Shown here one piece after another: positions 6,309-41,229 of a stretch of DNA of 64,000 bases. Positions within the stretch are counted from its first letter, which is position 1. Every line of letters begins with the position of its first letter. The stretch is from an uncultured Erysipelotrichaceae bacterium (GTDB lineage Bacteria; Bacillota_I; Bacilli_A; RF39; UBA660), in assembly GCA_902801795.1 (NCBI GenBank), contig CADCJQ010000009.1, positions 3,452 through 67,451 on the forward strand. The letters are read 5' to 3'. The position numbers were made by a program, and so were the translations under genes. The notes under the pieces are model-generated. The model was not told where the DNA came from, did not search any database, and saw only the letters and a list, made by a program, of their open reading frames with translations.

Positions 6309-6323
6309 TCAATTCATCCCTTT

Positions 6324-8627: not shown

Positions 8628-8712
8628 AATATCACTTCCTTATATTTTCATACAACATAATTATATAAAATAATAATAAAAAATTCAAGTTAAAAAAAAG
8701 AATACTTGACTA

Positions 8713-8901
8713 TTATTCAGCATTCTTTTCTACTTTAATTATTTCTTCTTTCTTATAATATCCACACTTAGAACATACACGATGTGGTTTAATAGTTTCT
8801 CCACAATTTGGACAAACAGTAACAGTCTTTGCTGTTAAAGCATTATGTGCTCTTCTCATTCTTTTTCTTGTTTTAGAAACTTTTCTAAAAGGTACAGCCA
8901 T
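8713..8901 (-). CDS. rpmF: 50S ribosomal protein L32
   Basis: Begins MAVPFRKVSKTRKRMRRAH and carries the CPNCG...CSKCGYY zinc ribbon. Confidence 0.95.
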   Translation of the reverse strand: MAVPFRKVSKTRKRMRRAHNALTAKTVTVCPNCGETIKPHRVCSKCGYYKKEEIIKVEKNAE

Positions 8902-8916
8902 GATCTCACTCCTTTC

Positions 8917-9360
8917 TTAATTCTCAAAGAAATCACTAAATGGATTATTTTTCTTGATATATTCCTCTTCACTAATAACACGATAATTATCCGTTTCAAT
9001 ATTATCAACATCACTATTAGTAAATCTCATAGGAACTTCCAAGATAATATAATGCCACAAAAATTCAATTAAATCAAGTGTTTTGCATGAATTTTCCAAA
9101 GTTTCTTCTATTTTTGTTTCAAAATCATATGGTCTTTCTTCGTAAGTAACACTATCATGTAAAATCATTGTTCCTTTGACATTAAAATTAATAACATAAT
9201 TATATTCTAAATCACATGTTATTTCACCATTAACATGAATATCTTTCAAATCAATAATATCGCTATTTTCATAGATTTTCTTAGGAATTAAAATATTTTT
9301 ATCAATTATAATTTTGTCTTTATAATTTAATTCTTGTAAATCAATCACATTTATCACCAA
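8917..9360 (-). CDS. yceD: YceD/DUF177 family protein (large-subunit rRNA accumulation protein)
   Basis: 147-aa acidic protein directly upstream of rpmF, the conserved yceD-rpmF pair. Start codon is uncertain. Confidence 0.7.
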   Translation of the reverse strand: MVINVIDLQELNYKDKIIIDKNILIPKKIYENSDIIDLKDIHVNGEITCDLEYNYVINFNVKGTMILHDSVTYEERPYDFETKIEETLENSCKTLDLIEFLWHYIILEVPMRFTNSDVDNIETDNYRVISEEEYIKKNNPFSDFFEN

Positions 9361-9399
9361 ATAAAATTATACTACAAAACAATAATTAAAACAAACAAA

Positions 9400-9830
9400 A
9401 AATGATATTCTCTGATAAAGAACATCACTTCGAGTTTAGAAAAAGTTGTACCATTCATATTAGCATTAATACCTAATATGAATTTAAATAAATATTATCA
9501 GTATTTACTACAACATCTTATCATTTGAGTTTTACTTTCTCACAAACAATTGTTCTGTCCTGAGGCGATAATTACCAAAAGCATTTGGTTTTTCTTACCC
9601 ATAAACAGGATATCAATAGCATTTTACAGTACCAGTAATAACTGATACAGCTCCTAAAATAAAATGGAGCAAATAGCAACAAGGCTATAAAGTGATAAAA
9701 TCACTTAAAGGATATCAAATATGATACCTAAGTAGTTCAACTAGGAACTACGGATTCAAATAAATGAATCAAACAAATAAATTAAGTAAAATGTCTATTT
9801 TTTTCTTCCTATCTTCAAGACATTATTATT
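9400..9830 (-). other. hairpin-dense non-coding region: candidate oriT or structured RNA
   Basis: No ORF is present. Perfect stems seen: 9453-9483 (11 bp), 9574-9589, 9647-9670, 9689-9706, 9731-9750 and 9791-9826, plus the 10-bp palindrome aacaattgtt. A TGtcaTATAAT box on the minus strand lies near 9828-9838. Confidence 0.35.
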
Positions 9831-9902
9831 ATATGACAAAAAAAATAAAAATGCAATACTTTTTTTAAAAAAATTATATTTTTTTTCGTGGACAAATTAA
9901 AT

Positions 9903-9930
9903 TAAAGAAAAAATAACTATTTTCATAGTT
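9903..9930 (-). terminator. terminator after the coupling-protein gene
   Basis: Minus strand reads aactatgaaaatagtt followed by attttttc. The hairpin overlaps the stop codon. Confidence 0.6.
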
Positions 9931-12118: not shown

Positions 12119-12139
12119 CCTTTCATATCAAACATATAT

Positions 12140-12808
12140 TTAACTATTCTTTTTCTTATTAACAAAAACAAAAATCCAAGCTCCTATTGTTAAAATTAAA
12201 ATACCAAATAAAATAATATATATATCAAAATTAGCAATAAACTTACTTGATGTATCTAGTTCTAACATTATCTTAAAATCTTCATCATCAGCCTTCATGA
12301 TAAAATGATATGTATTTGTTTTTTTATCTATTTCAGTAGCATTACTATCAACTACTTTATATGCACTTTTTATCGCTATATCTAAATTTTCCACATAAAA
12401 TCTATCAGGATTTTCTTCTTCATTTGGATTAAATCCTTCTGTTTCTATTTTAACAATTTTTCCTTCTTTTGTATAGTTTATTTTATCAAAATAATTATTA
12501 AATAGTTTAGAATTATTTAAATATTCTTGAATATCTTGATATTCTCTTTCAATTTTTACATATGGATTTTCATTTTTTACAACTTCCGTTTGATAATTAT
12601 TTTCTTTTAATTCATTATCATAAATATCTAATAATTCCTCAAGAACTTTAACTTTAGTAGTTCGATAATGTGAATTATATAATTCATCATTACCTTCTAA
12701 AAAAGCAGTTTCCATTACTTTCAAATCATCTTTTATTTCAACATGATAATTAACACTACATCCTGTTAATAAAACTAATAAACTAACTAATATCACAATT
12801 TTTTTCAT
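12140..12808 (-). CDS. T4SS-associated lipoprotein with C-terminal TM segment
   Basis: Signal peptide plus lipobox LLTGCS. C-terminal hydrophobic segment IYIILFGILILTIGAWIFVFV. Lies between the hydrolase and coupling-protein genes. Confidence 0.55.
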   Translation of the reverse strand: MKKIVILVSLLVLLTGCSVNYHVEIKDDLKVMETAFLEGNDELYNSHYRTTKVKVLEELLDIYDNELKENNYQTEVVKNENPYVKIEREYQDIQEYLNNSKLFNNYFDKINYTKEGKIVKIETEGFNPNEEENPDRFYVENLDIAIKSAYKVVDSNATEIDKKTNTYHFIMKADDEDFKIMLELDTSSKFIANFDIYIILFGILILTIGAWIFVFVNKKKNS

Positions 12809-12811
12809 AGA

Positions 12812-14800
12812 TTAATCCTTCCAAATAATATGAAATGGTTTATTCCCAGAATGACCTGCTGGAATAATTACATCATTAAAACTATACCAACCATTACCCG
12901 ATTTTCTACTTTTATTGTTTTTGTTACTCTTATTGTTGGGATCATTAACATAAACTTTTCCTGTTTCTGGATCAACACCTGATAATACCATATAATGTCC
13001 ACCACCTGTAAAGATATTTGGTCCTAAGACATGATAAACTATTAAATGTCCTTGACTTAAATGTGATAAAACTAAATTCTTATCACTAGTACTTCTTTTA
13101 CCAACATTTAAGTAATGATAGCCCATGGCATTAGCTTGCTTCTTATAATATGCTATCGCTGTACCTGATACTCCAGAACCACATTGTCCCCATTTATATG
13201 CTTGATTCATTGTATAAACAGGATCGTATTTATTATTCTTTTCATAGGTTGACAATACCATCGCCATTGCGGTAATACCACATCCATATTCTCCAATAGA
13301 ATGTTTCAATCCACAAAAAGGTACATTATTATAATCTTTTTGATCATAGAAAATAACATCTGTTAACACTTTTTCATTACCAAAATTAACACCAGAAATA
13401 TAAGTATTTTCACGAATATTTTTTATTGTTACATTACCATATGCATTTTTTATCATTTCTTGATATGTTGAACCACTTACTGTATTTAATTTATCTAAAT
13501 CAACAGAAACATATTTTCCACTATTATCTACTAACACATAACCATAGATATTATCAACAGCCTTATTAATATTATTTTGCACCGTTGTATCCAAAGGTAC
13601 TTTGTAATAATATCCCCCATTATTAAAGGTATTATTACCATTACTAATATTATTACTACCTGAAACTAGTTCTTTATTATTATCATAACTACAGCCATCA
13701 CTTAAACTACAATATTCAATTCCGGTAGTATCAGTTAACGAAATCGCTCCAGTGCTTAAAGAAATATTATTTTTCGCTAAAACATTACTAGTTGATGCAA
13801 TGGATAATGCTTTAATTTTTTCCGTATTCGATAGATCATTATTAGAAATATTGGCATAAACAGAGCCAGATAAGTATTGTTTAAAGGAAACATTATTGTT
13901 ATCATCATTAGTTGTAACAGTGGCATCTTCCGCAACAAAATATTCTGCAGACATATCTTCATCTACATTAAGATTTTCACTTAATTCAAATATTTCCTTA
14001 AGTATTTCAACATATGTTGTATTTTCTTCTCTTGCTACTCTACTATAATATTTTTCAAATACCGTATCATTACTTAAATTATTAAAGAAATTACCATTAA
14101 CCGTATAATCTGCACCACAAGAACTTGGTAAATCAACAAAGATATTATCAAGCATCGTAGTCATGGCACTATAATCATATTCATCCCCTGTTTTATAATA
14201 GTAATATATGATAACTGAATGAATTAAATTTTTGTTTACTTGTTCTCCATGACAACTTTCTTGATAATTAGCAACTAAATCATTAAGATGACGATAATAT
14301 TCTTTTTCTTCACTACTAGCGTTTTCATTGTTATTTTCATTAAAAAGCATTGGTCCTAAAAAAGGTACATAAGTTTGAACAGCACTTACTACAATAATCA
14401 AAATTAAAACAATAAATAATATAGGTAAAATTGCTCCAATAATACCAAAAATACTAAATAATTTTTTTACTTTTTTAGCCTTTTCAATAACATCATCAAC
14501 TGTAGTTTCCGTATTATTATCTTGTTCTTCAGAACTATTATTATCAGCGGCAATATTACTAGCATTATTTTTAAAACGCGAAAATAATCCACGATTTTTT
14601 TGTTTATTACTTGCAACTTTATTTTTCAAAGAAGCATTATTGGTTGTTGTTTTACGATTATTAATTTTATTAAGTTCTTGATTTTTATTACCACTATATA
14701 GATTTTGTCCATGTGATATTTGATTTAATCTATTAGGAATATGATTTCCTTTATTTGAAGGTAAATCATTTTTACCATCAAATCTACTATTATTATTCAC
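12812..14800 (-). CDS. membrane-anchored putative cell-wall hydrolase with C-terminal papain-fold (C39-like) cysteine peptidase domain
   Basis: Disordered N-terminus, then one TM segment (FSIFGIIGAILPILFIVLILIIVV). The C-terminus carries GEYGCGITAMAMVLSTY ... GGHYMVLSGVD ... VNDPN, a Cys/His/Asp-Asn arrangement. Its position matches the hydrolase slot of Gram-positive T4SS loci. Confidence 0.55.
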   Translation of the reverse strand: MNNNSRFDGKNDLPSNKGNHIPNRLNQISHGQNLYSGNKNQELNKINNRKTTTNNASLKNKVASNKQKNRGLFSRFKNNASNIAADNNSSEEQDNNTETTVDDVIEKAKKVKKLFSIFGIIGAILPILFIVLILIIVVSAVQTYVPFLGPMLFNENNNENASSEEKEYYRHLNDLVANYQESCHGEQVNKNLIHSVIIYYYYKTGDEYDYSAMTTMLDNIFVDLPSSCGADYTVNGNFFNNLSNDTVFEKYYSRVAREENTTYVEILKEIFELSENLNVDEDMSAEYFVAEDATVTTNDDNNNVSFKQYLSGSVYANISNNDLSNTEKIKALSIASTSNVLAKNNISLSTGAISLTDTTGIEYCSLSDGCSYDNNKELVSGSNNISNGNNTFNNGGYYYKVPLDTTVQNNINKAVDNIYGYVLVDNSGKYVSVDLDKLNTVSGSTYQEMIKNAYGNVTIKNIRENTYISGVNFGNEKVLTDVIFYDQKDYNNVPFCGLKHSIGEYGCGITAMAMVLSTYEKNNKYDPVYTMNQAYKWGQCGSGVSGTAIAYYKKQANAMGYHYLNVGKRSTSDKNLVLSHLSQGHLIVYHVLGPNIFTGGGHYMVLSGVDPETGKVYVNDPNNKSNKNNKSRKSGNGWYSFNDVIIPAGHSGNKPFHIIWKD

Positions 14801-14821
14801 GATTTACCTCCTTATTTTAAT

Positions 14822-14843
14822 AAAAGACCTTAAAAGGTCTTTT
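14822..14843 (-). terminator. intra-cluster hairpin (attenuator/terminator-like) between the VirB4 and hydrolase genes
   Basis: Minus strand reads aaaagaccttttaaggtctttt, followed by attaaaataaggaggtaaatcGTG (the hydrolase RBS and start). Confidence 0.45.
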
Positions 14844-14846
14844 ATT

Positions 14847-16634
14847 TTATAATCCTCCACCAGATCCAAAACTATCTAGTTCATCTTGAGTAACTATAAC
14901 ATCTATTTGCATACGTTTATTACCACATACAAATAATGCTTGACCTTGGGAATATCTTTTTATACTATCTATTTCATTATCATTTAAATCAACTAACTTT
15001 GCTAAATCCTCTACTGACTGTTTATTAAGTTGCATAATCAAATAATATGATGCATTACCAAAAATTGCCTTTCCTTGAGTAATAACTGAAGGATTAGAGA
15101 AATCACTAGGTTGTTGTGTAATAATTATAGTTCCTGTATTATATTTTCTTGCTCGACGTTGAACTTGAGCAAGGAAATCAGCACCTAAAATATTATTTCC
15201 AGATAAAAGTACATGAGCTTCATCAACCATTAATATCGTATCACGACGTCTGTCAAGACATAATCCCCAAGCATACTTTAATACGTTAAAGAATAAAGCA
15301 TTCTTAATATTTTCATCAGCATTCATTAATTCTTTTATATTAAAAACAATAAATTCACTATTACCTGGAATGGAAGTATGACCATCAAAATAATATTTAA
15401 GTTCACGTACAAATGGACGAACCTTAAGTTCAAGACGCTCTAAGACATCACGTTCATGAGTTTTCTCAGTTGTTGCTGTAAGTCTTCCACGAACGGTTGC
15501 ATAAACATCACTGAATGTTGGAAATTCTTCACTTTTTTTATTTGTAAAATCACTCGCAAAATTAATTCCAAAACGATGATATGTATCTTGAACAACTTCA
15601 CTAAATAATGTTAAAACATCTTCTTCAATATCAGGATAATAATATCTCATAAAGGCTTTTAAAAATTGTAATGTACGAGTTAAAACAGTATAACCAATAC
15701 CATTTTTTATGTCTTCTTCGTCAGCATCCATTACGATTTCAAAAGGGTTAATTAAGCCATAACTGCCACCTTTACCAAGGTCAATAGAATCCCCTCCATA
15801 AAGCATACACATATCTTCAAGTTCGTTTTCTGGATCTATCGCTACTATTTGACAATTATTTCTAATGTGTCCACGAAGTAATAATTTAGCAGCCGTACTT
15901 TTACCACTACCAGAACCACCAAGTATAACTAAATTAGCATTATTTCGGTTATTTTCTTTACGTATTTTATATAAAAATTGATTAAATAAGATAACACCAC
16001 CAGAGAAATCAACACCAATTAAATTGGCTAATCCTGGGTCTTTTATCGAATCAAAAACGAAAGGATACATTGCTGCAATAGTATATGTTGGAATAGGTAC
16101 ACCAATTCTTTCTTCAATTTTTTGTTTAGGAAAGATTGGTAAAATCGATTTAAGTAAAGTTTCTTGTTCAAATCTTAAACTAACAGCACGTAATTCCATA
16201 GAATCAAGATAATTTTTAACATTCGTTTTTCTATTTTCAAGTTCTTCTCTTGTATTAGCAGTAATCATAACATGTAGTTGAAAATCAAATATCATATCTT
16301 GATTAGCTGCAATATTTTGAATAAAACTCTCTAGTGATTCATAATCTTGACGAAGTCTTTCTTGCATTATTTTATCTTTTTCTTTTTCATAACGATCACG
16401 ATAATCTGCTACTTGTTTATCAATCATTTTTCTTAGTACACTAAATGGTACAGGAATATGTTTAATAACAACTTTAATACCAGACATATTAGTAAGTCCT
16501 GATAAATATCCTGGACTAATAAATTTCGGATAAGAAACAACAGTCATAATTGTTGCATATTTGTCACTTATAACAAAATCACTTGGATTAAACTGTAATC
16601 CCTTTGGTGCTATTTCTGAAGAAAAGATACTCAT
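14847..16634 (-). CDS. VirB4/TraE-type conjugation ATPase (C-terminal 595-aa part)
   Basis: Walker A GGSGSGKST and Walker B ILMVDEAH. The N-terminal region APKGLQFNPSDFVISDKYATIMTVVSYPKFISPGYL is typical of Gram-positive VirB4 middle domains. Confidence 0.85.
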   Translation of the reverse strand: MSIFSSEIAPKGLQFNPSDFVISDKYATIMTVVSYPKFISPGYLSGLTNMSGIKVVIKHIPVPFSVLRKMIDKQVADYRDRYEKEKDKIMQERLRQDYESLESFIQNIAANQDMIFDFQLHVMITANTREELENRKTNVKNYLDSMELRAVSLRFEQETLLKSILPIFPKQKIEERIGVPIPTYTIAAMYPFVFDSIKDPGLANLIGVDFSGGVILFNQFLYKIRKENNRNNANLVILGGSGSGKSTAAKLLLRGHIRNNCQIVAIDPENELEDMCMLYGGDSIDLGKGGSYGLINPFEIVMDADEEDIKNGIGYTVLTRTLQFLKAFMRYYYPDIEEDVLTLFSEVVQDTYHRFGINFASDFTNKKSEEFPTFSDVYATVRGRLTATTEKTHERDVLERLELKVRPFVRELKYYFDGHTSIPGNSEFIVFNIKELMNADENIKNALFFNVLKYAWGLCLDRRRDTILMVDEAHVLLSGNNILGADFLAQVQRRARKYNTGTIIITQQPSDFSNPSVITQGKAIFGNASYYLIMQLNKQSVEDLAKLVDLNDNEIDSIKRYSQGQALFVCGNKRMQIDVIVTQDELDSFGSGGGL

Positions 16635-17263
16635 CGAACCACCACCGTTCCAAAATCATGCCTTACACCACCATTTAAGAAATTATCTATAATAATTCTT
16701 AAATCATCATCACTGGTTGGTGTAGCAAGTAAACTACAACTTGCAAAGCCATTAATTATTGCTCGCATTTTATCTTGTAATCTATCCATATTACTTTCTT
16801 TAAACAATACATAATATTCCGTATCAACAACCTGATTATTAATAAACATATCCGCTTTTTCCAAATCTTGCATAATCATTTTACGACGAGCTGGAGTAAG
16901 TTGTTCATTAAGCATTAACTCAAGTTGTGATGTATAAACAGAAATATCAACAGGGCGATCAGCAGCAATAAGCCAAAATTCAAAGTTAAAAGTATTATAA
17001 CAATTTCTTAAGGCATTTAAAATATTTTCTTGTTGAATTTGATCAAGAATAAAGATATTTCTTGGCTCAACTTTAACACCTGTTACCATATCCTTATTAG
17101 GTAAAGTAATAATTCCATTTTTAATTGATCTTATCCTAACCCAATTTTCTGTAAAAGCACTATTATTATTCACTGGAGGTTTCTTAACATTTTGTGGTTT
17201 CTGAACTGGTCTTCCACCTTGTACAGGAGGTCTACCCATTGCGTTTGGATTCATATTCCGCAC
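16631..17263 (-). CDS. VirB4 N-terminal-domain-like protein (separate ORF)
   Basis: 210 aa. The stop overlaps the VirB4 start in ATGA. The segment IKNGIITLPNKDMVTGVKVEPRNIFILDQIQQENILNALRNCY resembles the extreme N-terminal region of full-length (~800 aa) Gram-positive VirB4 proteins. Together 210 + 595 aa gives about that length. Confidence 0.5.
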   Translation of the reverse strand: MRNMNPNAMGRPPVQGGRPVQKPQNVKKPPVNNNSAFTENWVRIRSIKNGIITLPNKDMVTGVKVEPRNIFILDQIQQENILNALRNCYNTFNFEFWLIAADRPVDISVYTSQLELMLNEQLTPARRKMIMQDLEKADMFINNQVVDTEYYVLFKESNMDRLQDKMRAIINGFASCSLLATPTSDDDLRIIIDNFLNGGVRHDFGTVVVR

Positions 17264-17558
17264 ACCATCCTCTCCATTTATAATTTCTGTTGTTAGTATA
17301 AAAACTAATCATTTCTTGAATTGCTACCAAAACATTATGATAATTTGGTATTGGCCATACAAGAATAGCACAAACCAAACCAGGAAAGACTGATAGAATC
17401 ATCAATATCGTTGGTGCATTCATACTATTAAATACCAAAAACAAAACAAATGTAACCAAAACCCCAGTCAGTAATATCGCTGCATCAACTGGACGAAACA
17501 TACTTAACCAAAGTTGTCCTCGTTTAGTATTAGCAGGTATTAAATATTGATTATTCAA
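17232..17558 (-). CDS. PrgI/TcpE/VirB3-like small T4SS membrane protein
   Basis: 108 aa with two TM segments. Sits directly upstream of VirB4. The N-terminal motif IPANTKRGQLWLSMFRPVDAAILL is of the PrgI-family type. Confidence 0.55.
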   Translation of the reverse strand: MNNQYLIPANTKRGQLWLSMFRPVDAAILLTGVLVTFVLFLVFNSMNAPTILMILSVFPGLVCAILVWPIPNYHNVLVAIQEMISFYTNNRNYKWRGWCAEYESKRNG

Positions 17559-17575
17559 ATAATATCACTCTCCTA

Positions 17576-19717
17576 TTATGATGATTTTTTATCATATTTA
17601 TCTGCAATAGATTTAACAGTAGCAGCAGCACCTTCGTGCCCTTTAGCCTCAATACTAGACGTTTGTGCCTCTTGTCCCATTTTCTTATTAAGATTAAGCC
17701 ATTCACCAATTTTATTAGGTAATACATTACCATTACCATCAAGCATTCCTTTATCTCTTGCTACTTGCATTACATCACGTCCAAATATTGTATCAGCACT
17801 ATGCATAATATTGGCTTCTAGTGCTTCTTGTATCATTCTACCAAATGCAGGATTTGTTTCTTTATCAAAACCTAGTTCCTTATATACTGCATCATACATT
17901 GAAGGATTAGACTCAATTGCTTTTGTAGAATTGATGATATACTTATCTGCTTCACCCTGTAGTTTATCAAGAAGCCTACTTGCTAAAGCTGTATCTTCAC
18001 CAGAAAAAGCCCCATTTTTATTTTCAATTACTTTTGTCAAATCATTTAAAACCCCAGCAATTGTCCTTGAACCAGATTTTCCCATTTGAGTTAAATCAAT
18101 TGATAATCCACCAGAAAAATTATACCTGTTTTGTCCTGGTTGTACTTGAAGTTTCTCCAAGAATTTAGTATCTGTCATCATATCATCAGTAAATTTAACA
18201 CCACCAAATTTAACTGAAATATTATTGTGTACATAATCCAAAGCTGCTTTTGATTTATCGCTGGCATTCTTGGATGCTTCAATTTCGGAATTCATTGTAT
18301 CCAAATTAGACTTTATACCCATTCTCCTATTAAATACTTCTCTCATATAGTCAGTACGTTTTACATTATTATTTTGTAATTCTCCTGATAAATCATAACT
18401 TCTATCAGCAGCACTCCTTGCAGTACTTCTGGTTTCTTTATACCCTTTGTTATGTGCGACACTTTCAAACATACCATGAGCAAATCCAGAACCAGCAGAT
18501 CCTATTGCTCTACTCCATGCCTTACGTTTTGTATAACCATCAGCAGCTGCCTTTTTTAATGCTGTATTTTTCTCATCACGTGACATTCGAGCCCAAGCTT
18601 TACCTCCACCATATTTTTTAGCAATTTCATTTTTTTCGTTTTGTCTTGCAGCATATAATCTACCAGGTATTGATGATGCTGCCCCAAGCATTCCGCTAGC
18701 ACGTTTAAACATATTTCCAATGCTTTCATCAGCACCTTTAATACCTAATAAATCACAAATAAATTTAGGAGCCTTCTTTGCAAACAAACAAAGAGCAATA
18801 ATAACAGCAATTTTAACCATTATTGCTTCAAAACCTTGAAATTGATTATTAGTTGCAAATGAATGTAAAAACAAGATAATGATTTCAATTACAAAATAAA
18901 TAACAAAAACTTTAATAAATAAATCTGTATATACTTGAATAGCAGTCTTTGACCATTCACCTAATTTCTTTTCATCAGATATATAGTTAACAATAGGTAC
19001 TGGCGATAATATCTGAATAACACCAAACTTAATCGTCCTTTCTCCAATTTCAAAAGCCAAACTGCCAAATAAAACAACTAAATAAATTCCAATTGGAATT
19101 AATAAGGCTAAATATCCCAGTTGATAAGGACACCCTTCACCAGAAACTAAAGCAATAGGACCATCTTTACATCCATTATTTAATATATCCGTTATATTTA
19201 AAATTTTAAAACTATTTTGGTTTATCGTTGTAGATGGATTTACACCGGTATTAGGTACTAAAAAACCTGAAATAACGTTATAGGCTATTGCATCTGCCGA
19301 TGATTCAAAATCAAGTTCACCATTAGAATTTTTTGGAACATCCGTTCTATTGCCAAAGACAATATTAGGTATTTGTTCAACAACAATATCTTCAACTTTA
19401 ATTGCAAATTGAAAAATGGCTGGAACAAAAACTAATAAACCTACTGAAATAACAATTCTTTGAAGTAATGCACTTAAACCTTTACTTTTATCTTCTAAAG
19501 AATCAGGATTAACTAAATATTGTACTGCCGAAATAACTAATTTGAATAACATTAAAACACCAATAATGATATAAACTCTATTAGTAAAGTCTTTAATAAT
19601 ATCTATTTCATTAAAAAGTTTATATTTAGATAAATTCCCTATCAAAACTAAAATTTGGGTTACAACAAAGAATACCATTCTAATTAGTTCCGTTAGAATT
19701 CTATATAATAATCCCAT
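17576..19717 (-). CDS. VirB6-like polytopic T4SS channel protein with large C-terminal soluble domain
   Basis: 713 aa with at least 6 hydrophobic segments in the first ~330 aa. Its position is equivalent to ConG/TcpH/Orf15. Confidence 0.6.
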   Translation of the reverse strand: MGLLYRILTELIRMVFFVVTQILVLIGNLSKYKLFNEIDIIKDFTNRVYIIIGVLMLFKLVISAVQYLVNPDSLEDKSKGLSALLQRIVISVGLLVFVPAIFQFAIKVEDIVVEQIPNIVFGNRTDVPKNSNGELDFESSADAIAYNVISGFLVPNTGVNPSTTINQNSFKILNITDILNNGCKDGPIALVSGEGCPYQLGYLALLIPIGIYLVVLFGSLAFEIGERTIKFGVIQILSPVPIVNYISDEKKLGEWSKTAIQVYTDLFIKVFVIYFVIEIIILFLHSFATNNQFQGFEAIMVKIAVIIALCLFAKKAPKFICDLLGIKGADESIGNMFKRASGMLGAASSIPGRLYAARQNEKNEIAKKYGGGKAWARMSRDEKNTALKKAAADGYTKRKAWSRAIGSAGSGFAHGMFESVAHNKGYKETRSTARSAADRSYDLSGELQNNNVKRTDYMREVFNRRMGIKSNLDTMNSEIEASKNASDKSKAALDYVHNNISVKFGGVKFTDDMMTDTKFLEKLQVQPGQNRYNFSGGLSIDLTQMGKSGSRTIAGVLNDLTKVIENKNGAFSGEDTALASRLLDKLQGEADKYIINSTKAIESNPSMYDAVYKELGFDKETNPAFGRMIQEALEANIMHSADTIFGRDVMQVARDKGMLDGNGNVLPNKIGEWLNLNKKMGQEAQTSSIEAKGHEGAAATVKSIADKYDKKSS

Positions 19718-19834
19718 AAACTCACCTCATATTTATTCAACCAAAACATTAGATTTTACGATAATTTAATTATATCATAAAAATGAAATTTTTTATACAT
19801 AAATTTAAACTTCTTTATTTTACTACGAAAATGT

Positions 19835-19860
19835 AAAAAAGGCAAACATTATTTGCCTTT
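19835..19860 (-). terminator. rho-independent terminator after the 694-aa gene
   Basis: Minus strand reads aaaggcaaataatgtttgcctttttt. A TATGATATAAT -10 box further downstream sits ahead of the VirB6-like gene. Confidence 0.65.
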
Positions 19861-21944
19861 TATCTACTAAAACCTGAATTTAAGTCATTATAATCTTCTG
19901 TATAATCATCTTTTTTAGCTTTTCTTATATAAATTTCACCGGTAAATCCATATAATTGTTGAAGTTTATTTTCAATTACTTTTCTATTATCATTTTCTAC
20001 AAACATCGTTCTTTCATAAAATTTATCTTCATCTTTAAAGAAATTACAAACAGCAGAATATCCAGCAAAAGTACGTCCTGTTCTGTCAACAATTTCATAC
20101 AATACTACTTCTACTTTATTAGGCAAAACATTATTAACTTTACTGTTATTTTTACCAAATAAATTAATAATATCATGTAATTTTAAACTATTTTCACCAC
20201 TTAATAAAGCTTCATTGATTTTTCCAGATGAGATAATATCCATAATTCTTCGAACATCAACTAATTCATCATGAATTCTATATAATGCTTGTTTCTTTTC
20301 ATCATTTAAATTCTTTAATGAACCTTTTCCTAAGAATGATTGGATTTTTTCTAAATCAACTCTTTTTATTAATTCATTTAATTCAGATACTTCAGTATTA
20401 TTATTTGAAGAATTTAATGAAGTACCATTATCTCTTAATTTTTTAATAGCTTTACCTAGTTTAGCCATAAGTGCAGCATCTCTTATTTCATTTTTTTGAC
20501 TATCAGTCATTTTATTATATTGATTATATAAATTACTTACTTCTTCTGGATCAAGATTATTTAAATCAAGTCCCTCAACTCCATCAACAAATTTTTGTAC
20601 TACCGGAGAATATTTTGATATTTTTTTGTTCTCTTCATTATTTTCAGTATTTTCTTTATTAAAATAATTTGTTAATAATGATGATAGTTTATTTAATTTT
20701 TCTGCTTCTTCTGGAGTAAGTTTTTCTTTATTTGATGATAATGCTGAAACAATTTCATTTAATTCTCTTGCTTTATCATCAGTTAAACTATCAATTGTTA
20801 ATGAATCAACATCACAATTATTTAATTTATTGCGATAATCATTAAAGATTCTTTCTTCATCAGAATTAGTTACAGCAGGTAAATTCTTTCCATTATCGCC
20901 TTTTCTTAGTAATTTCTTATTAATTCTAATATTTCTATTAGCATTTTTCGTTTTTCTTCTTTCTAGAAGAGCATTATTAATATTTTCAAGGAAACTTCCT
21001 TTTCGAATATTTTTGTGTTGAACTAATTTTGGCATATCATGATATTTTATAATATTAAACGCTGATGCTACTGTTTTAGCAATAAAATTAGTACCAACAA
21101 CACCAGTTAAAGCATAAATAGCAGGATAAGCTGCTGGCATAATAGCTGATGCCGCAATAAATACTCCAGCCGTTGCTACTATACCTGCAATAGGGTAAAG
21201 TATAACATGGTTATAACGCCAATTAGTTAATCCACAATGCCATTTCCATAAAGTGTTCCCAACTTTATTATCACGATATAATAAATTGTGAATTCTTTTA
21301 TCAATTTGACCAAAATAATTACTTATAACTTCTTTCGTTTTACCTTGTGAATTATTTACAACATTTTGCTTTTCAATATTAAGTTCATCTTTCCTTTGCT
21401 TTAACTCTTTAGAAAATTCTTTTCTTTTTTTAGCATCTTTTTCATTTTTTATTTTATCATTTAATTCTCTTATTTCAGATACTTTCTTTTCAGCATTTGT
21501 TTTAAAAGCATTCAATTTTCCATTTTGATCATCTAAAAAGGCTTTTCTATCCTTTAAGGCTTCCCTTGATATACCATTATATTCTTGAATTCTATCACGT
21601 TTAGCTTTCTCAAGTGGTCTTACGCTAATAGATGCATATGCCCCACTTTCTGTATCATGTTTATTAGTTATACCATTTTTATCATTGTATTCAAATCCTT
21701 CTGGTAAATTAAGTCGATTTCCTGGTACTGAAGATGCAATACCTCTATTTGCTTTTCCAGCATCATCTAATTCTAAATAAACACCAGGATTTAGTTTTTT
21801 TATTTCAGCAAATATTTCATCAACATCAGTTGATTCTTTAACATCTTTTGCCTCTTCATCTGTTTCTTCACTAACTAAACTATTAAGTATTTCTAATTCT
21901 TGGTTATTTTCATTAATTATTTTTTGTAGTTCTTCTAAATTCAT
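19860..21944 (-). CDS. coiled-coil protein with central membrane hairpin (paralog A)
   Basis: 694 aa, Lys/Glu-rich and predicted helical. Conserved block SNYFGQIDKRIHNLLYRDNKVGNTLWKW is followed by the hydrophobic stretch ILYPIAGIVATAGVFIAASAIMPAAYPAIYALTGVVGTNF. Confidence 0.5.
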   Translation of the reverse strand: MNLEELQKIINENNQELEILNSLVSEETDEEAKDVKESTDVDEIFAEIKKLNPGVYLELDDAGKANRGIASSVPGNRLNLPEGFEYNDKNGITNKHDTESGAYASISVRPLEKAKRDRIQEYNGISREALKDRKAFLDDQNGKLNAFKTNAEKKVSEIRELNDKIKNEKDAKKRKEFSKELKQRKDELNIEKQNVVNNSQGKTKEVISNYFGQIDKRIHNLLYRDNKVGNTLWKWHCGLTNWRYNHVILYPIAGIVATAGVFIAASAIMPAAYPAIYALTGVVGTNFIAKTVASAFNIIKYHDMPKLVQHKNIRKGSFLENINNALLERRKTKNANRNIRINKKLLRKGDNGKNLPAVTNSDEERIFNDYRNKLNNCDVDSLTIDSLTDDKARELNEIVSALSSNKEKLTPEEAEKLNKLSSLLTNYFNKENTENNEENKKISKYSPVVQKFVDGVEGLDLNNLDPEEVSNLYNQYNKMTDSQKNEIRDAALMAKLGKAIKKLRDNGTSLNSSNNNTEVSELNELIKRVDLEKIQSFLGKGSLKNLNDEKKQALYRIHDELVDVRRIMDIISSGKINEALLSGENSLKLHDIINLFGKNNSKVNNVLPNKVEVVLYEIVDRTGRTFAGYSAVCNFFKDEDKFYERTMFVENDNRKVIENKLQQLYGFTGEIYIRKAKKDDYTEDYNDLNSGFSR

Positions 21945-21999
21945 ACCCTTACACCTACCATACCTTAATTTTATAATTTTCTTTTTATGTTGTCAATTA

Positions 22000-23304
22000 C
22001 TAACTAACTTTTCTTAAAGATTTTTGTTTTTCTGCTTCATAGACATCAGATAAATAATCCATTACATCATCTTCATTAAAATCTTTACCTAAGTTATATA
22101 AAAGAGCTAAATATAATTCTTGTTCTTCTTTTGATGCTGTTCCTTCATGAATTTTTCTTCCATATTCAGATAATGCTTTTAATCTTCTTGAATAATAATT
22201 TAATTTTTCAATATCAGTATCTTTTTTCTTTTTAGTATTCTTTCCATAAGTTGTTGCTAACTTACTATATGCATCAATTCTATCATTATTATCATTACTT
22301 TTTCTTATTTTACTATATGCTTGTAAATAACTTAAATCATTATCACTTAATTGAATACCTAAACTAATATTTTCTTTTAGAAAATCTTTTTGTGGTACTT
22401 CATTATCTTTTTGTACATTCATATCTTCATCATTTTCTTCTAAATGATATGGTTCTAAATTATCTTCGTTATCTTGTTTTCTTGTATTAACTTCAACTTC
22501 TTCTTTATCTTTCGCTATTTCTTCTTCAAAAGTTTCTTCTTCTTTTGGCATTTCAATAAATTCACGTATTTCATCAATATTCTCTATTTCAATACCATCA
22601 TCTGTTAAAATTCTGGCTTTTTCATAGGCATATTTACTCGTTTCAATAACTTCTTTACGGTTTCCTTTAAAAATAGTTTTAAATCTCTTTAACAAAGGAC
22701 CACCAAATTTTTCCTTATTATATAAAGTTGAAATTGTATTGACAGTTGTTACTCCACCTACTAAAGAACCAAGTCCAATTGTTAAAAATGATGGAAGTGA
22801 TGTAAATACTCCTAAACCAACTAAAATCAAGATAACTCCTATATTAATAGTAAGATATTTATTTAAGTCATTATAACGATTGTTTACTAAATTACTATAA
22901 TTATTCCATAAAAAAGTTCCTAATTTACTTTTCTTAAACAAATAATTATTAATACGTTTATCTATTTGTCCAAAATAAGCACTAATAATATTCTTTTTCT
23001 TACCTTGCATTTCTCTTTTAACATTTAATTCTTGTTCTTTCATTTCTTTTTGTAATTCAATAATTTCATTATTTAAAAGAATTTTATTGTTATCTGAAGC
23101 ATCATGAATTTCCTCTAAGTTTTTTTCAATCTTTTCATTATTAGTTGTATAAACATCATTATATTTATTAATAACTTCATTTTGTTTAGATAAAATCTTT
23201 TTACGATCTTCTTTAACATCTATTGATAATTTTTCATTATTATCAATTTCATTTATTTCCTTTTTATTTCTTTTAAACAAATTTTTTAATCTTTCAAATT
23301 TCAT
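22000..23304 (-). CDS. coiled-coil protein with central membrane hairpin (paralog B)
   Basis: 434 aa. It shares the block SAYFGQIDKRINNYLFKKSKLGTFLWNN and the following hydrophobic hairpin with the 694-aa neighbour. Confidence 0.5.
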   Translation of the reverse strand: MKFERLKNLFKRNKKEINEIDNNEKLSIDVKEDRKKILSKQNEVINKYNDVYTTNNEKIEKNLEEIHDASDNNKILLNNEIIELQKEMKEQELNVKREMQGKKKNIISAYFGQIDKRINNYLFKKSKLGTFLWNNYSNLVNNRYNDLNKYLTINIGVILILVGLGVFTSLPSFLTIGLGSLVGGVTTVNTISTLYNKEKFGGPLLKRFKTIFKGNRKEVIETSKYAYEKARILTDDGIEIENIDEIREFIEMPKEEETFEEEIAKDKEEVEVNTRKQDNEDNLEPYHLEENDEDMNVQKDNEVPQKDFLKENISLGIQLSDNDLSYLQAYSKIRKSNDNNDRIDAYSKLATTYGKNTKKKKDTDIEKLNYYSRRLKALSEYGRKIHEGTASKEEQELYLALLYNLGKDFNEDDVMDYLSDVYEAEKQKSLRKVS

Positions 23305-26489: not shown

Positions 26490-26710
26490 AAAAAACTCTT
26501 ATTCCAAAAGAATAAGAGCCAACTCTTTACAATTAATTATGTACTATCATACATTGTCTTGATAACGGAAGACTCTCCGTATTGTAATACTTTATTCCTA
26601 CAATCTCTCAGTGGTCCATTCACTACTATTTAACTATGATTTCCCATCAACCAATCACTTTCTTAAAGTTATAACAATAGTTACTACTCCAAATCACAAA
26701 TTTAAATTAC
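26490..26710 (-). promoter_or_regulatory. T-box leader with Trp (UGG) specifier upstream of trpS
   Basis: The minus strand shows a specifier-loop-like gugaaUGGAcc and agagag-type stem I elements. A uUGGC bulge sequence lies next to the terminator ctcttattcttttggaataagagtttttt (26496-26518). The canonical T-box 14-mer is only weakly recognisable by eye. Confidence 0.65.
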
Positions 26711-26716
26711 ACTTTA

Positions 26717-26745
26717 ATTATATGATTATTATTTAATAAAGTCAA
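26717..26745 (-). promoter_or_regulatory. sigma-70/SigA-type promoter for the trpS leader
   Basis: Minus strand reads TTGACT - 17 nt - TATAAT. The -35 box is at 26740-26745 and the -10 box at 26717-26722. Confidence 0.6.
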
Positions 26746-26916: not shown

Positions 26917-26999
26917 AGCTCTAGGGCTCCGTACGCATTCGATCCGGGCGAGTTGCTACCATTATTGCCGTTATTGTTCACGTTACGCACATCGGAGGA
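26917..26999 (-). repeat. copy A: non-coding, TR-like (Asn-codon-rich) homolog of the two VR-like segments
   Basis: A GC-rich island in AT-rich DNA, ~45 nt past the stop of the 731-aa gene. In the VR frame it reads SSDVRNVNNNGNNGSNSPGSNAYG. Scaffold codons are A-free (TCC, GTG, CGT, GGC, TCG, CCC, GCG). A TAG lies immediately upstream of the frame and there is no plausible start. Confidence 0.6.
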
Positions 27000-27048
27000 A
27001 CAAATAAAACCTACACTATACACCTAATCATATTTTGTTTTTTTATTA

Positions 27049-29244
27049 TTATCCAACTTCATACGGATCATCAACATGACCACTACCAGAAATAATCTTT
27101 GTTTCAGATTTTAGATTGATAGATGGTCGGACGCCGAGCGCGTAGGAACTGGGCGAGTCGTAGTTCAAGAGACCATTGCCGTTCACGCGACGCACGCCGG
27201 AGGAAGAAAATGGTGTTATTAACCACATAGTCTTATAGTGGTTAGAGTTATTGACGTGATTTAATGTTGATTGTTGTGCTGACATCATTTCTCCTGCACG
27301 TAATAGTCCCACAAGTCCAGTATATGTTTTATTAGTATCACTACTTACATATTTCGTACAATTACTAATCGTCGTTGTCTCAAGTTCACTGGCTGTATTT
27401 TTACATATCGTCGCTTTATAGTTCGTACTATCTGGATATATTCCTAAATAGTATGTTCCATTTACTAGCAGGTTCTTATCACCTGAATAAATGGTACTTA
27501 ACCATCCACTTTCATCGGTTAAATATTTATCCCAGTATTTCATATCAGTAGACTGCGTATTAAAATAGACATCACTTCCAAAATTTCCTCTTGTTGTATC
27601 AGAAGTGTTGGAACTATTTGGGTTATTAGTATTTAGAAGCTCTTCTTTTTGACCTTCAACAATATCCCCTACAATGTGAAATGGCGATAATCTTGTTCCA
27701 TCATAATTTTCAGTATCAAAAGTGGCGCTAGATTTTAGATAAATAGATGGACGGACGCCGTACGCGTTGGAATAGGGTGAGTAATTGTTCAAGTCACCAT
27801 TGCTGAGCACATCACGCATACGGGAGGAACTATAAGGTGTTATTAGCCACCAACATTGACCGATTTGTAAGTAACCAGAACTTGTTCCACTTTTTTTGTA
27901 TTCAAAGGCATTTAATAAGCCTACTGTTCTATTAATAGTGTCATTGGCTACTCTTTCTAAATATGGGTCTGTATCTGCCGTAGTCTCTTTAACATTCCAT
28001 TCGGCGTTTTGAACAACGATATTGGTATTATTATATAATGTTGGTAAGAATTCTTGGGATAGCCATTGATCCATCCATGAGCCATCAAAGGTTACTGTAC
28101 TACCAAATTGTATTGTAGTCATATTATTTTCGGTTACTAACTTCATCATGCCATTAGGATAGATGGCTACTATTCGCCATAGTTTTCCGGAATACCAAAC
28201 ATAGTTCTTTAAACAACTTTCATCATTACCAGCATAATAGATGACATCTGCATCAATTTCACCATAAAATGATGATTTATTTGGTGCTGTCGAAATACAT
28301 GATGCTTGAGTTGCTTTTCTCTCTTGTAAAAATTCATGTGCCTTTTGTTCTTTTACTACCGCATAAAGGGTGGTATCACTATTAAAGTTAATAGTATCAC
28401 CAAGTTTGTATTCTACATCACCATCTGGAGTTGTACTCCATCCTCTAAAGTTTGGTACATCAAGTGATGCTGTTATGGTATCAGTTCCATCTCCTTTAAG
28501 AGGTTGACGTGATGGTGTACTTCCTAACAATTGGTTTTTATTATAAGTTAGATAGCCGACAGCAGATGAATCATATACTCCTTCATCAGCAAATACTTTA
28601 ACACTAAAGGTGATTGGAGTAGCCTGAAGAGCATTCCACTCAGTAGTAGTTAATACTGTTCTTCCTCTTACCCAATCACTTGTTGTACCCATATTATCTG
28701 ATTCTGTTCCATCGTAAGTATCGCTTATAGCTACTCTATCACCATCAATATAAACTCTTAAGGTAATTACTCCATTGACATTAGTGTTTGATTGAATATG
28801 ACCTACAGCAAATTCACTGTCATTTTGAAGGATTGTTCCATCTTCATATGAATATAATGTAACTGAATTATTAGGTAAATCACTACTTGTTACATTAACA
28901 CTTAAGGGAATATTCTTTCCGTTAGTAGTTATTCTTACGTTACTAGCTGTTACCTTATAATCAATTCCACCAGGATAACTTGTGTTTCCTTGAATAGATA
29001 CATTAATTGTCATAACATTATTAGTATCAGTTAAAATATTCGCTTTATCAATCGGAAAGACATTATTTAAAGTTACTGCTGTATAATTACTATTAAAATA
29101 GATATTTCCTACGGCAATACTATTAGAACTACCTGTTCTTGTATAATTAAAGAATGCAATTGATACTCCTACTAAGGTACTAACCAACATAAATAGCCCT
29201 AATACTATAATTAATATTTTTTTCTTTTTACTACTTTGTTCCAT
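27049..29244 (-). CDS. secreted/anchored surface protein: TasA/camelysin-like N-terminal module plus two C-terminal lectin-like (DUF1566/CLec-like) repeats
   Basis: N-terminal signal-anchor KKKKILIIVLGLFMLVSTLVGVSIAFFNYTRTG. Two C-terminal repeats end W(W)LITP(F/Y)SSS...YGVRPSI.LK. My hand count places the stop one nt off the ORF-track value, so local coordinates carry about +/-1 nt uncertainty. Confidence 0.7.
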   Translation of the reverse strand: MEQSSKKKKILIIVLGLFMLVSTLVGVSIAFFNYTRTGSSNSIAVGNIYFNSNYTAVTLNNVFPIDKANILTDTNNVMTINVSIQGNTSYPGGIDYKVTASNVRITTNGKNIPLSVNVTSSDLPNNSVTLYSYEDGTILQNDSEFAVGHIQSNTNVNGVITLRVYIDGDRVAISDTYDGTESDNMGTTSDWVRGRTVLTTTEWNALQATPITFSVKVFADEGVYDSSAVGYLTYNKNQLLGSTPSRQPLKGDGTDTITASLDVPNFRGWSTTPDGDVEYKLGDTINFNSDTTLYAVVKEQKAHEFLQERKATQASCISTAPNKSSFYGEIDADVIYYAGNDESCLKNYVWYSGKLWRIVAIYPNGMMKLVTENNMTTIQFGSTVTFDGSWMDQWLSQEFLPTLYNNTNIVVQNAEWNVKETTADTDPYLERVANDTINRTVGLLNAFEYKKSGTSSGYLQIGQCWWLITPYSSSRMRDVLSNGDLNNYSPYSNAYGVRPSIYLKSSATFDTENYDGTRLSPFHIVGDIVEGQKEELLNTNNPNSSNTSDTTRGNFGSDVYFNTQSTDMKYWDKYLTDESGWLSTIYSGDKNLLVNGTYYLGIYPDSTNYKATICKNTASELETTTISNCTKYVSSDTNKTYTGLVGLLRAGEMMSAQQSTLNHVNNSNHYKTMWLITPFSSSGVRRVNGNGLLNYDSPSSYALGVRPSINLKSETKIISGSGHVDDPYEVG
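27121..27204 (-). repeat. copy B: VR-like segment at the end of C-terminal repeat 2
   Basis: GC-rich and A-poor. Encodes SSSGVRRVNGNGLLNYDSPSSYALGVRPS. The same length and frame as copy C. Confidence 0.6.
27745..27828 (-). repeat. copy C: VR-like segment at the end of C-terminal repeat 1
   Basis: GC-rich and A-poor. Encodes SSSRMRDVLSNGDLNNYSPYSNAYGVRPS. Lies 624 nt (208 codons) from copy B. Confidence 0.6.
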
Positions 29245-29486
29245 ATATACCTCACTATCATCTTTTTAACAAATTATTATTTTATTTTCTACTTTATAAT
29301 TAAATTATATTTTTTTACATATAGTAAGTCAATATTATTTTTTATTTTTTGGTAAATTTACATTTCACATACAACACTACTATCATATTAATAAATTAAT
29401 TATTGAAATACTTATAACAAGAATAGAATAATTAATTAAATACTTTATCTTTTTGTTAAGGAAGAAAAAAGCATGATTACTCATGC

Positions 29487-39282: not shown

Positions 39283-41229
39283 TTATTGTGAAGTAATCTC
39301 TACTGTTCCTGTACCATATGTATATGTTCCTGTAACAAATGGAGTTCCCTCTCCAACTTCAAGAATATTCTTCCAATCAAATGCTCTATTGGATTTATTT
39401 ATAATTTTTGATAATGATATATTGGAATTATATTTTGCATCTAAAAAGAATGCCATTGAATCAATTGTAGTTACATTTCTTCCAATTGTTACCTGATGTA
39501 AATCGTTACAAACAAAAGCTTGTACTCCTATTTCTGTTACACTATCTGGTATTACTACCTCTGTTAATTTATTATTTCTAAAAGCATCACTTCCTATCGT
39601 TGTTACACTATCTGGTATTACTACCTCCGTTAATTTATTATTACTAAAAGCATCACTTTCTATTGTTGTTACACTATCTGGTATTACTACACTTGTTAAA
39701 TTTTTTTCAGAAAGGGCATTACTTTTTATCGTTGTTACATTATTTGGAATTATTACATCTGTACCACAAGATGTTTTTTTATCATCATAATCTATTAATG
39801 TAAATTCAGAAAATGTAAAACAATCTGCTGAAGAATTATTACCGGTTATACTAACTGTGACATTTCCAAGTGAATATTCGCCAAAAACAAATATATCCCT
39901 TTGATCTGTTTCTCCTAGAAAAATATAATCCCAATCAAATAAAGAATTTGAATTATTTTCAATGCTCGACAAGGAAATAATTCCTTCATACAAACCAATT
40001 GCTCTATAATAACCAAAGGCATACTTGCCTATTTGTCGCACATTTTTTCCTAATGTTATAGTGTTCAACATATTACCAGTAAAAGCATTTAATCCTATTG
40101 TTGTTACACTATCTGGTATTACTATACTTGTCAATTGATTTTCAGAAAATGCTCCATCTTCTATTATCGTTACACTATCTGATATTACTACACTTGTTAA
40201 CTGATTATTATCAAAAGCATGATTTCCTATTGTTGTTACACTATTTGGTATTACTATACTGTTTAAATTATTATATAAAAAAGCATTATTTCCTATTTCT
40301 GTTACACTATCTGGTATTACTACACTTTTTATATTGGAATTATAAAAGCCAGAAATTTTCTTTACAGGCAAATTATTTATTGTTTTTGGAATTATTACAT
40401 CTGTTCCACAACTATTATCATAATGAGTTATTTCTATGCCATCGTCCTTTTCTTGATATGTAAAACAATCAATTGATGTTGAAACCCCAGAAACCCAAAT
40501 ACCTTCATTAGCTTCTACCTTTATTTGAAATGTTATTGATGTATTTTGAAATTCATTCCATTCTTGTGTTGTAAATACTGTTCTTCCATTTGCCCATTCT
40601 TTAGTTGTACCCATTTCATCAGTAATCCCTATGCTATTATAGGTATCGCTTATGGCTATTTTATCTCTATCCAAGTACGCTTTAATAGTAATATTTCCGT
40701 TTATTCCTTCTGCTCCGGGAGCAATATAACCTACCATTATTTTATCATTTTCATTGATAACATCTTTTGTTAATAAACTATATATATGATTATCCGTTGT
40801 ATATCTTTCTTCAAAATAATCATCATTACTTGTTCCTAGTGTTCCACTTGCTGTAGTCATAACACTTATTGGTATTTTTTTCTTGTTATCACCGGTTCCT
40901 ATTATATTAGTTATATTTGTTGCACTAATTAAATATTCAACACCTTGATTATAAGTTGTATCACCTGATACATTAATAGTTATTGTACCAACTTTTGTAC
41001 TATCATCCATTATTCCAGGTTCTTCTGTGTTTATAGGAAAAAGATTGGTTAAATTAATTCTACCATCTTGACTAGAATTAAAAACAATTCTTCCTGTTCT
41101 AACAATATTTGCTGTACCTGTACGAGTATAGTTAAAAAAGGCAACTGATACTCCAAGCATTATACTTAAAACCCCCACGAATGCTAAAATACTAAGTATT
41201 TTTATCTTTTTCTCTTTCTCCATATACAT
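39283..41229 (-). CDS. surface protein: TasA/camelysin-like N-terminal module plus BspA-type leucine-rich repeats
   Basis: The N-terminal ~240 aa are homologous to the 731-aa protein (AFFNYTRTG..., ...MGTT.EW..GRTV.TT.EWN). The C-terminal half is made of ~23-aa repeats, VVIPDSVTTIGSDAFRNNKLTE. Confidence 0.75.
   Translation of the reverse strand: MYMEKEKKIKILSILAFVGVLSIMLGVSVAFFNYTRTGTANIVRTGRIVFNSSQDGRINLTNLFPINTEEPGIMDDSTKVGTITINVSGDTTYNQGVEYLISATNITNIIGTGDNKKKIPISVMTTASGTLGTSNDDYFEERYTTDNHIYSLLTKDVINENDKIMVGYIAPGAEGINGNITIKAYLDRDKIAISDTYNSIGITDEMGTTKEWANGRTVFTTQEWNEFQNTSITFQIKVEANEGIWVSGVSTSIDCFTYQEKDDGIEITHYDNSCGTDVIIPKTINNLPVKKISGFYNSNIKSVVIPDSVTEIGNNAFLYNNLNSIVIPNSVTTIGNHAFDNNQLTSVVISDSVTIIEDGAFSENQLTSIVIPDSVTTIGLNAFTGNMLNTITLGKNVRQIGKYAFGYYRAIGLYEGIISLSSIENNSNSLFDWDYIFLGETDQRDIFVFGEYSLGNVTVSITGNNSSADCFTFSEFTLIDYDDKKTSCGTDVIIPNNVTTIKSNALSEKNLTSVVIPDSVTTIESDAFSNNKLTEVVIPDSVTTIGSDAFRNNKLTEVVIPDSVTEIGVQAFVCNDLHQVTIGRNVTTIDSMAFFLDAKYNSNISLSKIINKSNRAFDWKNILEVGEGTPFVTGTYTYGTGTVEITSQ

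Follow-up and report, generated by a model that had tools for sequence, protein, structure and literature searches.

Two GC-rich variable repeats in a DUF6273 surface protein of an uncultured Erysipelotrichaceae bacterium: a probable remote target of a diversity-generating retroelement with an orphan template-like repeat

How a gene can carry the marks of a diversity-generating retroelement (DGR) when no reverse transcriptase (RT) lies near it is the question raised by a locus in a 64,000-nt stretch of contig CADCJQ010000009.1 (assembly GCA_902801795.1, positions 3,452 to 67,451) from an uncultured Erysipelotrichaceae bacterium; this whole 64-kb stretch is referred to below as the window. A gene for a 731-aa protein (27049 to 29244, minus strand) contains two GC-rich segments, B and C, and a third segment, A, lies beyond its stop codon. 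The original prediction, made from the DNA letters alone, described B and C as resembling DGR variable repeats (VRs) and A as resembling a template repeat (TR). That reading proved essentially right. We consider it likely that B and C are DGR-written VRs of a DUF6273 surface protein that serves as a remote target, and on this reading the locus adds a remote DGR target, accompanied by an orphan TR-like repeat, to a known kind of system and does not amount to a new mechanism; nothing found here requires the non-canonical diversification mechanism that had been listed among the possible interpretations.

A footprint of adenine-directed rewriting in B and C

The three segments are collinear and lie on the minus strand. 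A 28-base degenerate pattern matches three times in the 64 kb, at 26929 to 26999, 27134 to 27204 and 27758 to 27828, always on the minus strand, and has no match in 100 shuffles. The GC content of the 75-nt cores is 53% in A, 64% in B and 52% in C, compared with 26% for the window, and each core ranks in the top 0.01–0.1% for GC among all 75-nt windows; the sequences, coordinates, strand and translations stated in the original prediction are correct. Scores of local composition, proposed as a check of the prediction, mark B and C as outliers from the rest of the gene, with 13% A (z = −6.0) and a GC z-score of +7.5 in B, and 21% A (z = −4.0) and a GC z-score of +4.6 in C. GC content at third codon positions (GC3) is 0.76 in B and C together and 0.19 in the remainder of the gene. 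The two protein repeats had been called barely similar apart from these segments, for which about 75% identity was claimed, and their DNA similarity is indeed limited to 121 nt with 77% identity. Chance or a compositional artefact was rejected as the cause of the three copies.

More than 1000 homologs of the 731-aa protein exist. In the closest of these the flanks WWLITPYSSS and RPSIxLKS are kept and enclose, in both domains of the protein, approximately 25 hypervariable residues. Homologous DNA with GC-rich VRs comes from four more loci, L001 (86% DNA identity), L005, L019 (84%) and L012 (82%), which together with the window occupy five different genomic contexts. Two GC-rich VRs are found at every such locus except the truncated L012, for a set of nine from five loci that was used for the column analysis. 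The more distant homologs at L003 and L004 have no GC island at the VR-equivalent positions.

Among the 41 columns that are invariant in the nine VRs only 2 adenines occur, extending to these loci the observation that codons shared by B and C are nearly A-free. Variation follows the opposite rule: 18 of the 21 columns with at least three states fall at codon positions 1–2, and the hypervariable columns belong to NNY codons, the outcome anticipated from adenine mutagenesis of AAC/AAT (AAY) codons. Residues out of reach of AAY mutagenesis (K, E, Q, M and W) make up 5.1% at variable VR positions and 16.8% elsewhere in 60 family members, in which the spectrum at the variable positions is mostly S, Y, N, G and D. 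The window gene and L001 differ in 51% of amino acids within the VRs and in 14% within the flanks. Of the 22 differences between B and C, 18 are accounted for by one template that has adenine at the site concerned. All GC-rich VRs end in GGYGYCCGWCCATCTAT, consistent with an initiation of mutagenic homing (IMH) sequence, and B and C share 24 nt downstream of the core. By these measures, B and C show the complete sequence signature of templated rewriting directed by adenines, and they do so in a domain already known as a DGR target.

The timing of this rewriting can be judged from third bases. Both VRs of one gene share particular third-base states, namely TCT in L005 (column 5), AAT in the window (column 29) and xxT in L019 (column 41); five columns have exactly two minority states, and sharing of this sort is seen at three of them against a chance expectation of 0.11 per column (p about 0.01). 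Since the two domains are otherwise unrelated in DNA, these gene-specific states point to one genome-specific template that served both VRs and was in use once the loci had diverged. Judged from the aligned repeats, homing or rewriting thus went on after the family loci had separated.

An explanation without any retroelement is that the repeats were homogenised by gene conversion, with paralogs or else copy A as donors, the latter being a silent cassette of the pilS, vls or tprK type, and with diversifying selection acting in addition. The family does have several loci (the window, L001, L005, L012 and L019) in different genomic contexts, and conversion could also yield concerted states within a gene. 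However, it predicts neither the adenine-free invariant columns, nor the confinement of variation to positions 1–2 of NNY codons, nor the depletion of K, E, Q, M and W, nor the presence of an AAY-rich non-coding copy. Copy A was rejected as a conversion donor, as the longest exact run that it shares with B or C is 8 nt and there are hence no conversion tracts. We regard this explanation as very improbable.

If B and C were instead written by a DGR, the steps would follow standard DGR logic. Template RNA would be reverse-transcribed with random nucleotides placed opposite template adenines, and the cDNA would replace an 87-nt segment in both domains. The outcome would be A-free, GC-rich scaffold codons together with NNY codons randomised at positions 1–2, whereby a beta-hairpin on the ligand-binding face would be diversified.

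The target protein and its lectin-like domains

The original prediction placed B and C at the ends of two C-terminal protein repeats, and these correspond to two DUF6273-type domains that each end in a VR. Pfam assigns DUF6273 (PF19789) to residues 381–504 (27733 to 28104, minus strand) with 36.6 bits, above the gathering cut-off of 23.5 (E 5e-9). This first domain ends at VR C (27742 to 27830, minus strand), which encodes SSRMRDVLSNGDLNNYSPYSNAYGV and continues into a conserved, GC-rich, IMH-like 3′ segment, GGCGTCCGTCCATCTAT. The second DUF6273-like domain, at residues ~540–715 (27100 to 27627, minus strand), is assigned only through the structural model with its Foldseek matches and the likeness of its 3′ end, and it ends in VR B (27118 to 27206, minus strand), encoding SSGVRRVNGNGLLNYDSPSSYALGV and then GGCGTCCGACCATCTAT.

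The N-terminal edge of the second domain is cut by a gap. A run of 96 nt (32 aa, RISGEYVKFNNELYRIVGIENNTTKIVNTSYI) is missing from the window gene at 27627/27628, which falls between residues 539 and 540; it is kept in L001, L005, L012 and L019 and also in L009, an otherwise identical assembly. L009 belongs, with L013, to a second assembly of the same strain (ENA contig k141_10780, 73.7 kb, 99.96–100% identical to the window). Either the assemblies differ here, or an in-frame deletion has removed the beginning of the second DUF6273-like domain.

Residues 301–731 were modelled with AlphaFold from 60 homologs at a mean predicted local distance difference test (pLDDT) score of 89.7 and a predicted template modelling (pTM) score of 0.90, giving two similar globular domains; pLDDT exceeds 90 over the first. 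Each VR is predicted as a confident beta-hairpin at the end of its domain, followed by the conserved RPSIxLK strand. The top Foldseek matches of the model are gut-phage DUF6273 proteins, with E-values down to 2.6e-9, and the best match among solved structures is the Thomasclavelia ramosa IgA peptidase (PDB 9qa6, E 1e-6), whose N-terminal domain is DUF6273 (PMC12402451). Classical C-type lectins reached only non-significant E-values among solved structures. The fold prediction, suggested as a check, agrees with the noted resemblance to C-type lectin variable domains insofar as the domain is the C-lectin-like DUF6273, a published DGR target. The C-lectin-like label of DUF6273 rests on PMC10743442, and the domain has been described as a DGR target with the VR at its C-terminus in tentaclins and Mtd-like targets, Faecalibacterium prophages and Toutatisvirus (PMC10743442, PMC11792537, bioRxiv 10.1101/2024.10.15.618418). 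In the protein studied here the VRs likewise close a C-type-lectin-like domain, with predicted surface exposure.

The N-terminal 300 residues model as a long transmembrane (TM) or signal helix (residues 3–33), a beta-sandwich and an InlB-B-repeat-like module. This Flg_new/InlB-B-repeat-like module spans about residues 246–297 and has a weak Flg_new match in Pfam (residues 265–296); other than to this module, the N-terminal domain has no significant match in the PDB, and NCBIfam gave no match for the 731-aa protein. As modelled, this is a surface protein, either secreted or anchored in the membrane, that bears two lectin-like heads, and members of the family probably act in the gut or rumen as adhesins or ligand sensors. 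A sigma-70-like promoter candidate for the gene, TTGACT and TATAAT with a 17-nt spacer, lies at 29304 to 29332 on the minus strand as a consensus match only (11/12).

Copy A and the search for a DGR core

Copy A (26924 to 27001, minus strand) was predicted to be a non-coding, TR-like repeat about 45 nt past the stop codon. It begins 47 nt past the stop codon, is non-coding, and is collinear with the VRs across 78 nt with no indels. Adenine is present in copy A at 18 of the 39 columns that vary among the VRs and at 3 of the 36 invariant columns (Fisher p = 3e-4), and no other copy has as many adenines (21) or AAY codons (8 in the VR frame, compared with 1–4 in the VRs). With each copy in turn taken as the template, the one with the highest fraction of mismatches falling on its adenines was copy A, at 37–65%.

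Copy A is ruled out as the cognate TR of B and C all the same. Its mismatches lie at adenines at 15 of 30 sites relative to B, the half estimated by hand in the original prediction, and at 11 of 30 relative to C, leaving 15 and 19 at non-adenine sites. At six columns that are invariant among the VRs it has another base (AAT in place of TTG at codon 13, for instance), and it has none of the four window-specific states (columns 26, 29, 71 and 73). Similarity of the flanks to those of the VRs is not significant on either side beyond the 78-nt core (p = 0.4–0.8), and there is no IMH*-like 3′ extension. The conclusion that copy A is not the current cognate template accordingly stands.

The closest GC-rich relative of copy A is L001_B, which also forms the best pair with it (15 of 23 mismatches at adenines, 8 at non-adenine sites). 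The second VR of the paralog P0009 at L004, which has decayed towards AT, carries private states of copy A: T at columns 35, 41 and 62, G at column 59, and GGC at codon 11. As far as these comparisons reach, copy A is derived from a real template lineage, but a different one from that of B and C, and it is an orphan TR-like repeat that is placed as a TR would be in a target-TR-RT cassette and is not the donor for B or C. At L004 the family paralogs P0013 and P0009 stand in tandem (4953 to 9496) with AT-rich VR-equivalent segments, and the second VR of P0009 looks like the GC-to-AT-decayed product of a copy-A-type template.

Copy A might nevertheless be a functional TR uncoupled from its RT. 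It would then be transcribed by read-through from the target gene as part of the 3′ untranslated region and would serve paralogs elsewhere in the genome, in a dispersed DGR whose templates are scattered among paralogs and are used in trans by one distant RT. Several properties of the copy fit this proposal. It is intact, collinear with the VRs, AAY-rich and undecayed, with G or C at 16 of 25 third positions (0.64) even though it is non-coding and the genome is 26% GC. In the L001 and L019 homologs a hairpin terminator follows the gene at the corresponding place, but here no terminator was found between the gene and copy A; similarity of the window to these two homologs ends 3–23 nt past the stop codon. 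The states shared with P0009 imply that its template lineage was really used, and co-transcription of TR and RT is not required (PMC5758913). On the other side, no VR cognate to copy A was found, the 8 non-adenine mismatches to L001_B and the want of an IMH*-like extension apply here as well, RNA folding of copy A with its flanks gave no significant structure (z = +1.45), and the adjoining 27 kb to one side and 44 kb to the other contain no RT. No additional copy was found in the window or in any fetched locus. We consider such a detached, working TR unlikely.

Several findings weigh against the reading of B and C as DGR-written repeats of a remote target, the outcome of the search for a DGR core among them. 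No Pfam match to an RT (RVT_1) or to the Avd, HRDC, MSL or CH1 families was obtained for the 45 window ORFs of at least 100 aa, in accordance with the predicted lack of RT and Avd genes. The GxxxSQ...YxDD motif of RTs is absent from the six frames of the window, of L013 and of L006, a contig from a second sample that is >99.9% identical in the overlap and covers sequence beyond the right end of the window. Neither a DGR-clade RT nor Avd was found on the remainder of the 73.7-kb contig (L009, L013 and L006), nor in ~80 kb around six homologous loci. A cognate TR, differing from B or C almost only at adenines, was not found in any public collection scanned. The pattern scan of genome contigs, which covers species representatives other than the source genome, gave a chance match in Enterovirga only; that of metagenome contigs gave two chance matches in GC-rich DNA and one true relative, L012, without an RT. 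A protein search with a translated hypothetical TR returned one candidate, and none scored.

The repeats themselves also contain points against it. The 4 differences between B and C beyond the 18 described above are C/T changes at third positions, for which strict adenine-only mutagenesis of one template does not account. Synonymous divergence between genomes is 17–31% in scaffold codons and 21–27% in the flanks; the templates have thus diverged together with the genomes. Lastly, the VRs and copy A are identical in L009, the sole same-strain assembly, the 4 single-nucleotide polymorphisms of which relative to the window all fall in an ABC-transporter gene. With respect to the strain comparison proposed in the original prediction, the VRs are hypervariable among homologs of 82–86% DNA identity and do not differ between the two assemblies of the strain.

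Several features on record for DGRs are relevant here. Targets may lie up to millions of bp from the RT, a Treponema DGR has seven non-adjacent targets, and avd-TR-brt works in trans, with TR and RT on different strands in some cases; one target gene with three VRs has been described, non-A-to-N substitutions occur in 23% of DGRs (at most 11 in one target), in-frame indels adjoin AAC runs, and the IMH starts with a GC-rich segment, a GC-rich hairpin being present in just 34% of DGRs (PMC5758913). The phrase 'without a reverse transcriptase' in the original prediction accordingly holds for the 73.7-kb contig, while its extension to the genome is beyond the reach of one contig, remote targets being documented (PMC5758913). 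As the RT/Avd core and the cognate template are off this contig, the target gene would be remote, and we infer that the agent is a DGR core located elsewhere or, alternatively, that the gene was recently orphaned. L001 and L009, at 86% DNA identity, come from the same sample (ERZ27280724) and different genomic contexts. Together with L005, L012 and L019 they hint at several two-VR paralogs per genome, which would amount to at least 10 VRs for one DGR.

A fossil DGR would account for many of the same observations. The RT/Avd core would have been lost, B and C would be frozen products of retrohoming, and copy A would be the remnant of a local target-TR-RT cassette. The lack of an RT on 73.7 kb or beside any family member agrees with such a loss, as do the non-cognate copy A without an IMH*-like flank, the identity of A, B and C in the second assembly, and the 3–4 third-position C/T differences, which fit drift since the last homing. 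Decay evidently happens in the family, given that the VR equivalents of L003 and L004 have lost their GC-richness, and a preprint on Toutatisvirus reports that some phage genomes without a DGR retain DUF6273 targets (bioRxiv 10.1101/2024.10.15.618418). However, in a genome of 26% GC, a GC3 of 0.76 in the VRs, and of 0.64 in the non-coding copy A, speaks for active maintenance or for writing in the recent past, the states shared by both VRs of a gene indicate homing after the loci diverged, and one contig cannot establish that an RT is absent genome-wide. A fossil is thus quite possible, if somewhat short of probable. Assuming that B and C were DGR-written, an active remote core and a recent fossil appear about equally credible: the identical VRs in the second assembly, the few C/T differences and the lack of an RT near family members point to loss or quiescence, and the still sharp GC islands and the intact non-coding copy A point against long inactivity.

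Contig context and known systems

Downstream, the locus is bounded by the trpS promoter and T-box leader (26551 to 26745, minus strand), outside the DGR-like feature. The T-box itself was detected at 26551 to 26706 (E 2e-15) with trpS directly after it, as had been predicted. No record exactly matching P0001, P0007 or the TrpS ORF was retrieved. The contig also carries mobile and repetitive elements. A small integrase element adjoins recG at 1 to 1789 of the window, with a tyrosine integrase (683 to 1789) and five small genes including an Xis-like ORF (376 to 612); the identical integrase occurs on at least 22 contigs from many samples with differing flanks (L013–L018). A conjugative-element gene set at 6324 to 23304 includes FtsK/SpoIIIE, a type IV secretion system coupling protein (9929 to 12118), a C39-like peptidase (12812 to 14800), a TraG/VirB4-like ATPase (14847 to 16634) and three large ORFs without a Pfam match (17576 to 23304). 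At 39283 to 41229 a BspA-type leucine-rich-repeat surface protein, another probable adhesin of this region, is encoded by DNA with 66-nt periodic repeats. A long imperfect AT-rich repeat array with a period of 9–15 nt (53450 to 53752) forms a low-complexity tract of an ORF without a Pfam match (52748 to 53803). An 857-aa protein (55745 to 58318) has 10 DUF4379 treble-clef zinc-finger repeats, a weak REase_MTES_1575 match and an internal period of ~210 nt; its gene adjoins a large serine recombinase (54032 to 55663) and has a paralog 7 kb to the left of the window on the same contig (L013, 1057 to 3606).

Phage origin of the gene family was rejected. Viral contigs gave no match to three DNA patterns (the VR/TR core, its AAY-rich TR version and the IMH-like 3′ end) and no relatives in a back-translated protein scan, and nothing was retrieved by blastn of A and B against phages or by tblastn of the two-domain region against phages and plasmids.

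Among known systems, the classical arrangement is that of Bordetella phage BPP-1 (mtd-avd-TR-brt), in which, as here, a target with a VR at its 3′ end is followed by a TR or TR-like repeat with AAC/AAT template codons, and the variable part of the VR gives way to a GC-rich segment. The window locus differs in having no avd or brt, in the 15–19 non-adenine differences between copy A and the VRs, in the lack of an IMH*-like imperfect repeat, and in having no GC-rich hairpin after its VRs. The orphan copy A poses the question of whether TRs survive, or even work, apart from the RT. The TvpA DGR of Treponema denticola and other 'Lineage 4' cellular DGRs (PMC5758913) also have cellular surface targets at several loci, there far from the RT. 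Non-A-to-N substitutions and in-frame indels are frequent in Lineage 4, and here L001_C falls one codon short of the length of the remaining VRs. An RT and a cognate TR are known for the Lineage 4 systems, whereas neither was found here, and their targets are of the FGE-sulfatase type instead of DUF6273.

With respect to the domain itself, the IgA peptidase of T. ramosa is also a surface protein of a low-GC gut bacterium of the class Bacilli; DGR diversification is not known for its DUF6273 domain, which is joined to an M64 peptidase. Also among the closest known systems are the DUF6273 DGRs of human-gut phages (tentaclins and Mtd-like targets; the Faecalibacterium prophages Lelie, CP11, Roos and Pioen; Toutatisvirus), which share with the window protein the DUF6273 target, the C-terminal VR and the beta-hairpin. 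Some of these have two targets per TR, and some genomes keep targets without a DGR. In contrast to them, the window locus has no nearby RT, Avd or cognate TR and no phage relative was found, and the protein is cellular, TM-anchored and holds two DUF6273 domains in one polypeptide. If B and C are indeed DGR-written, DGR-type diversification of DUF6273 lectin-like domains would thereby extend from gut phages to a cellular surface-protein family of uncultured low-GC Bacilli that has two diversified domains in each protein and is dispersed over at least five loci.

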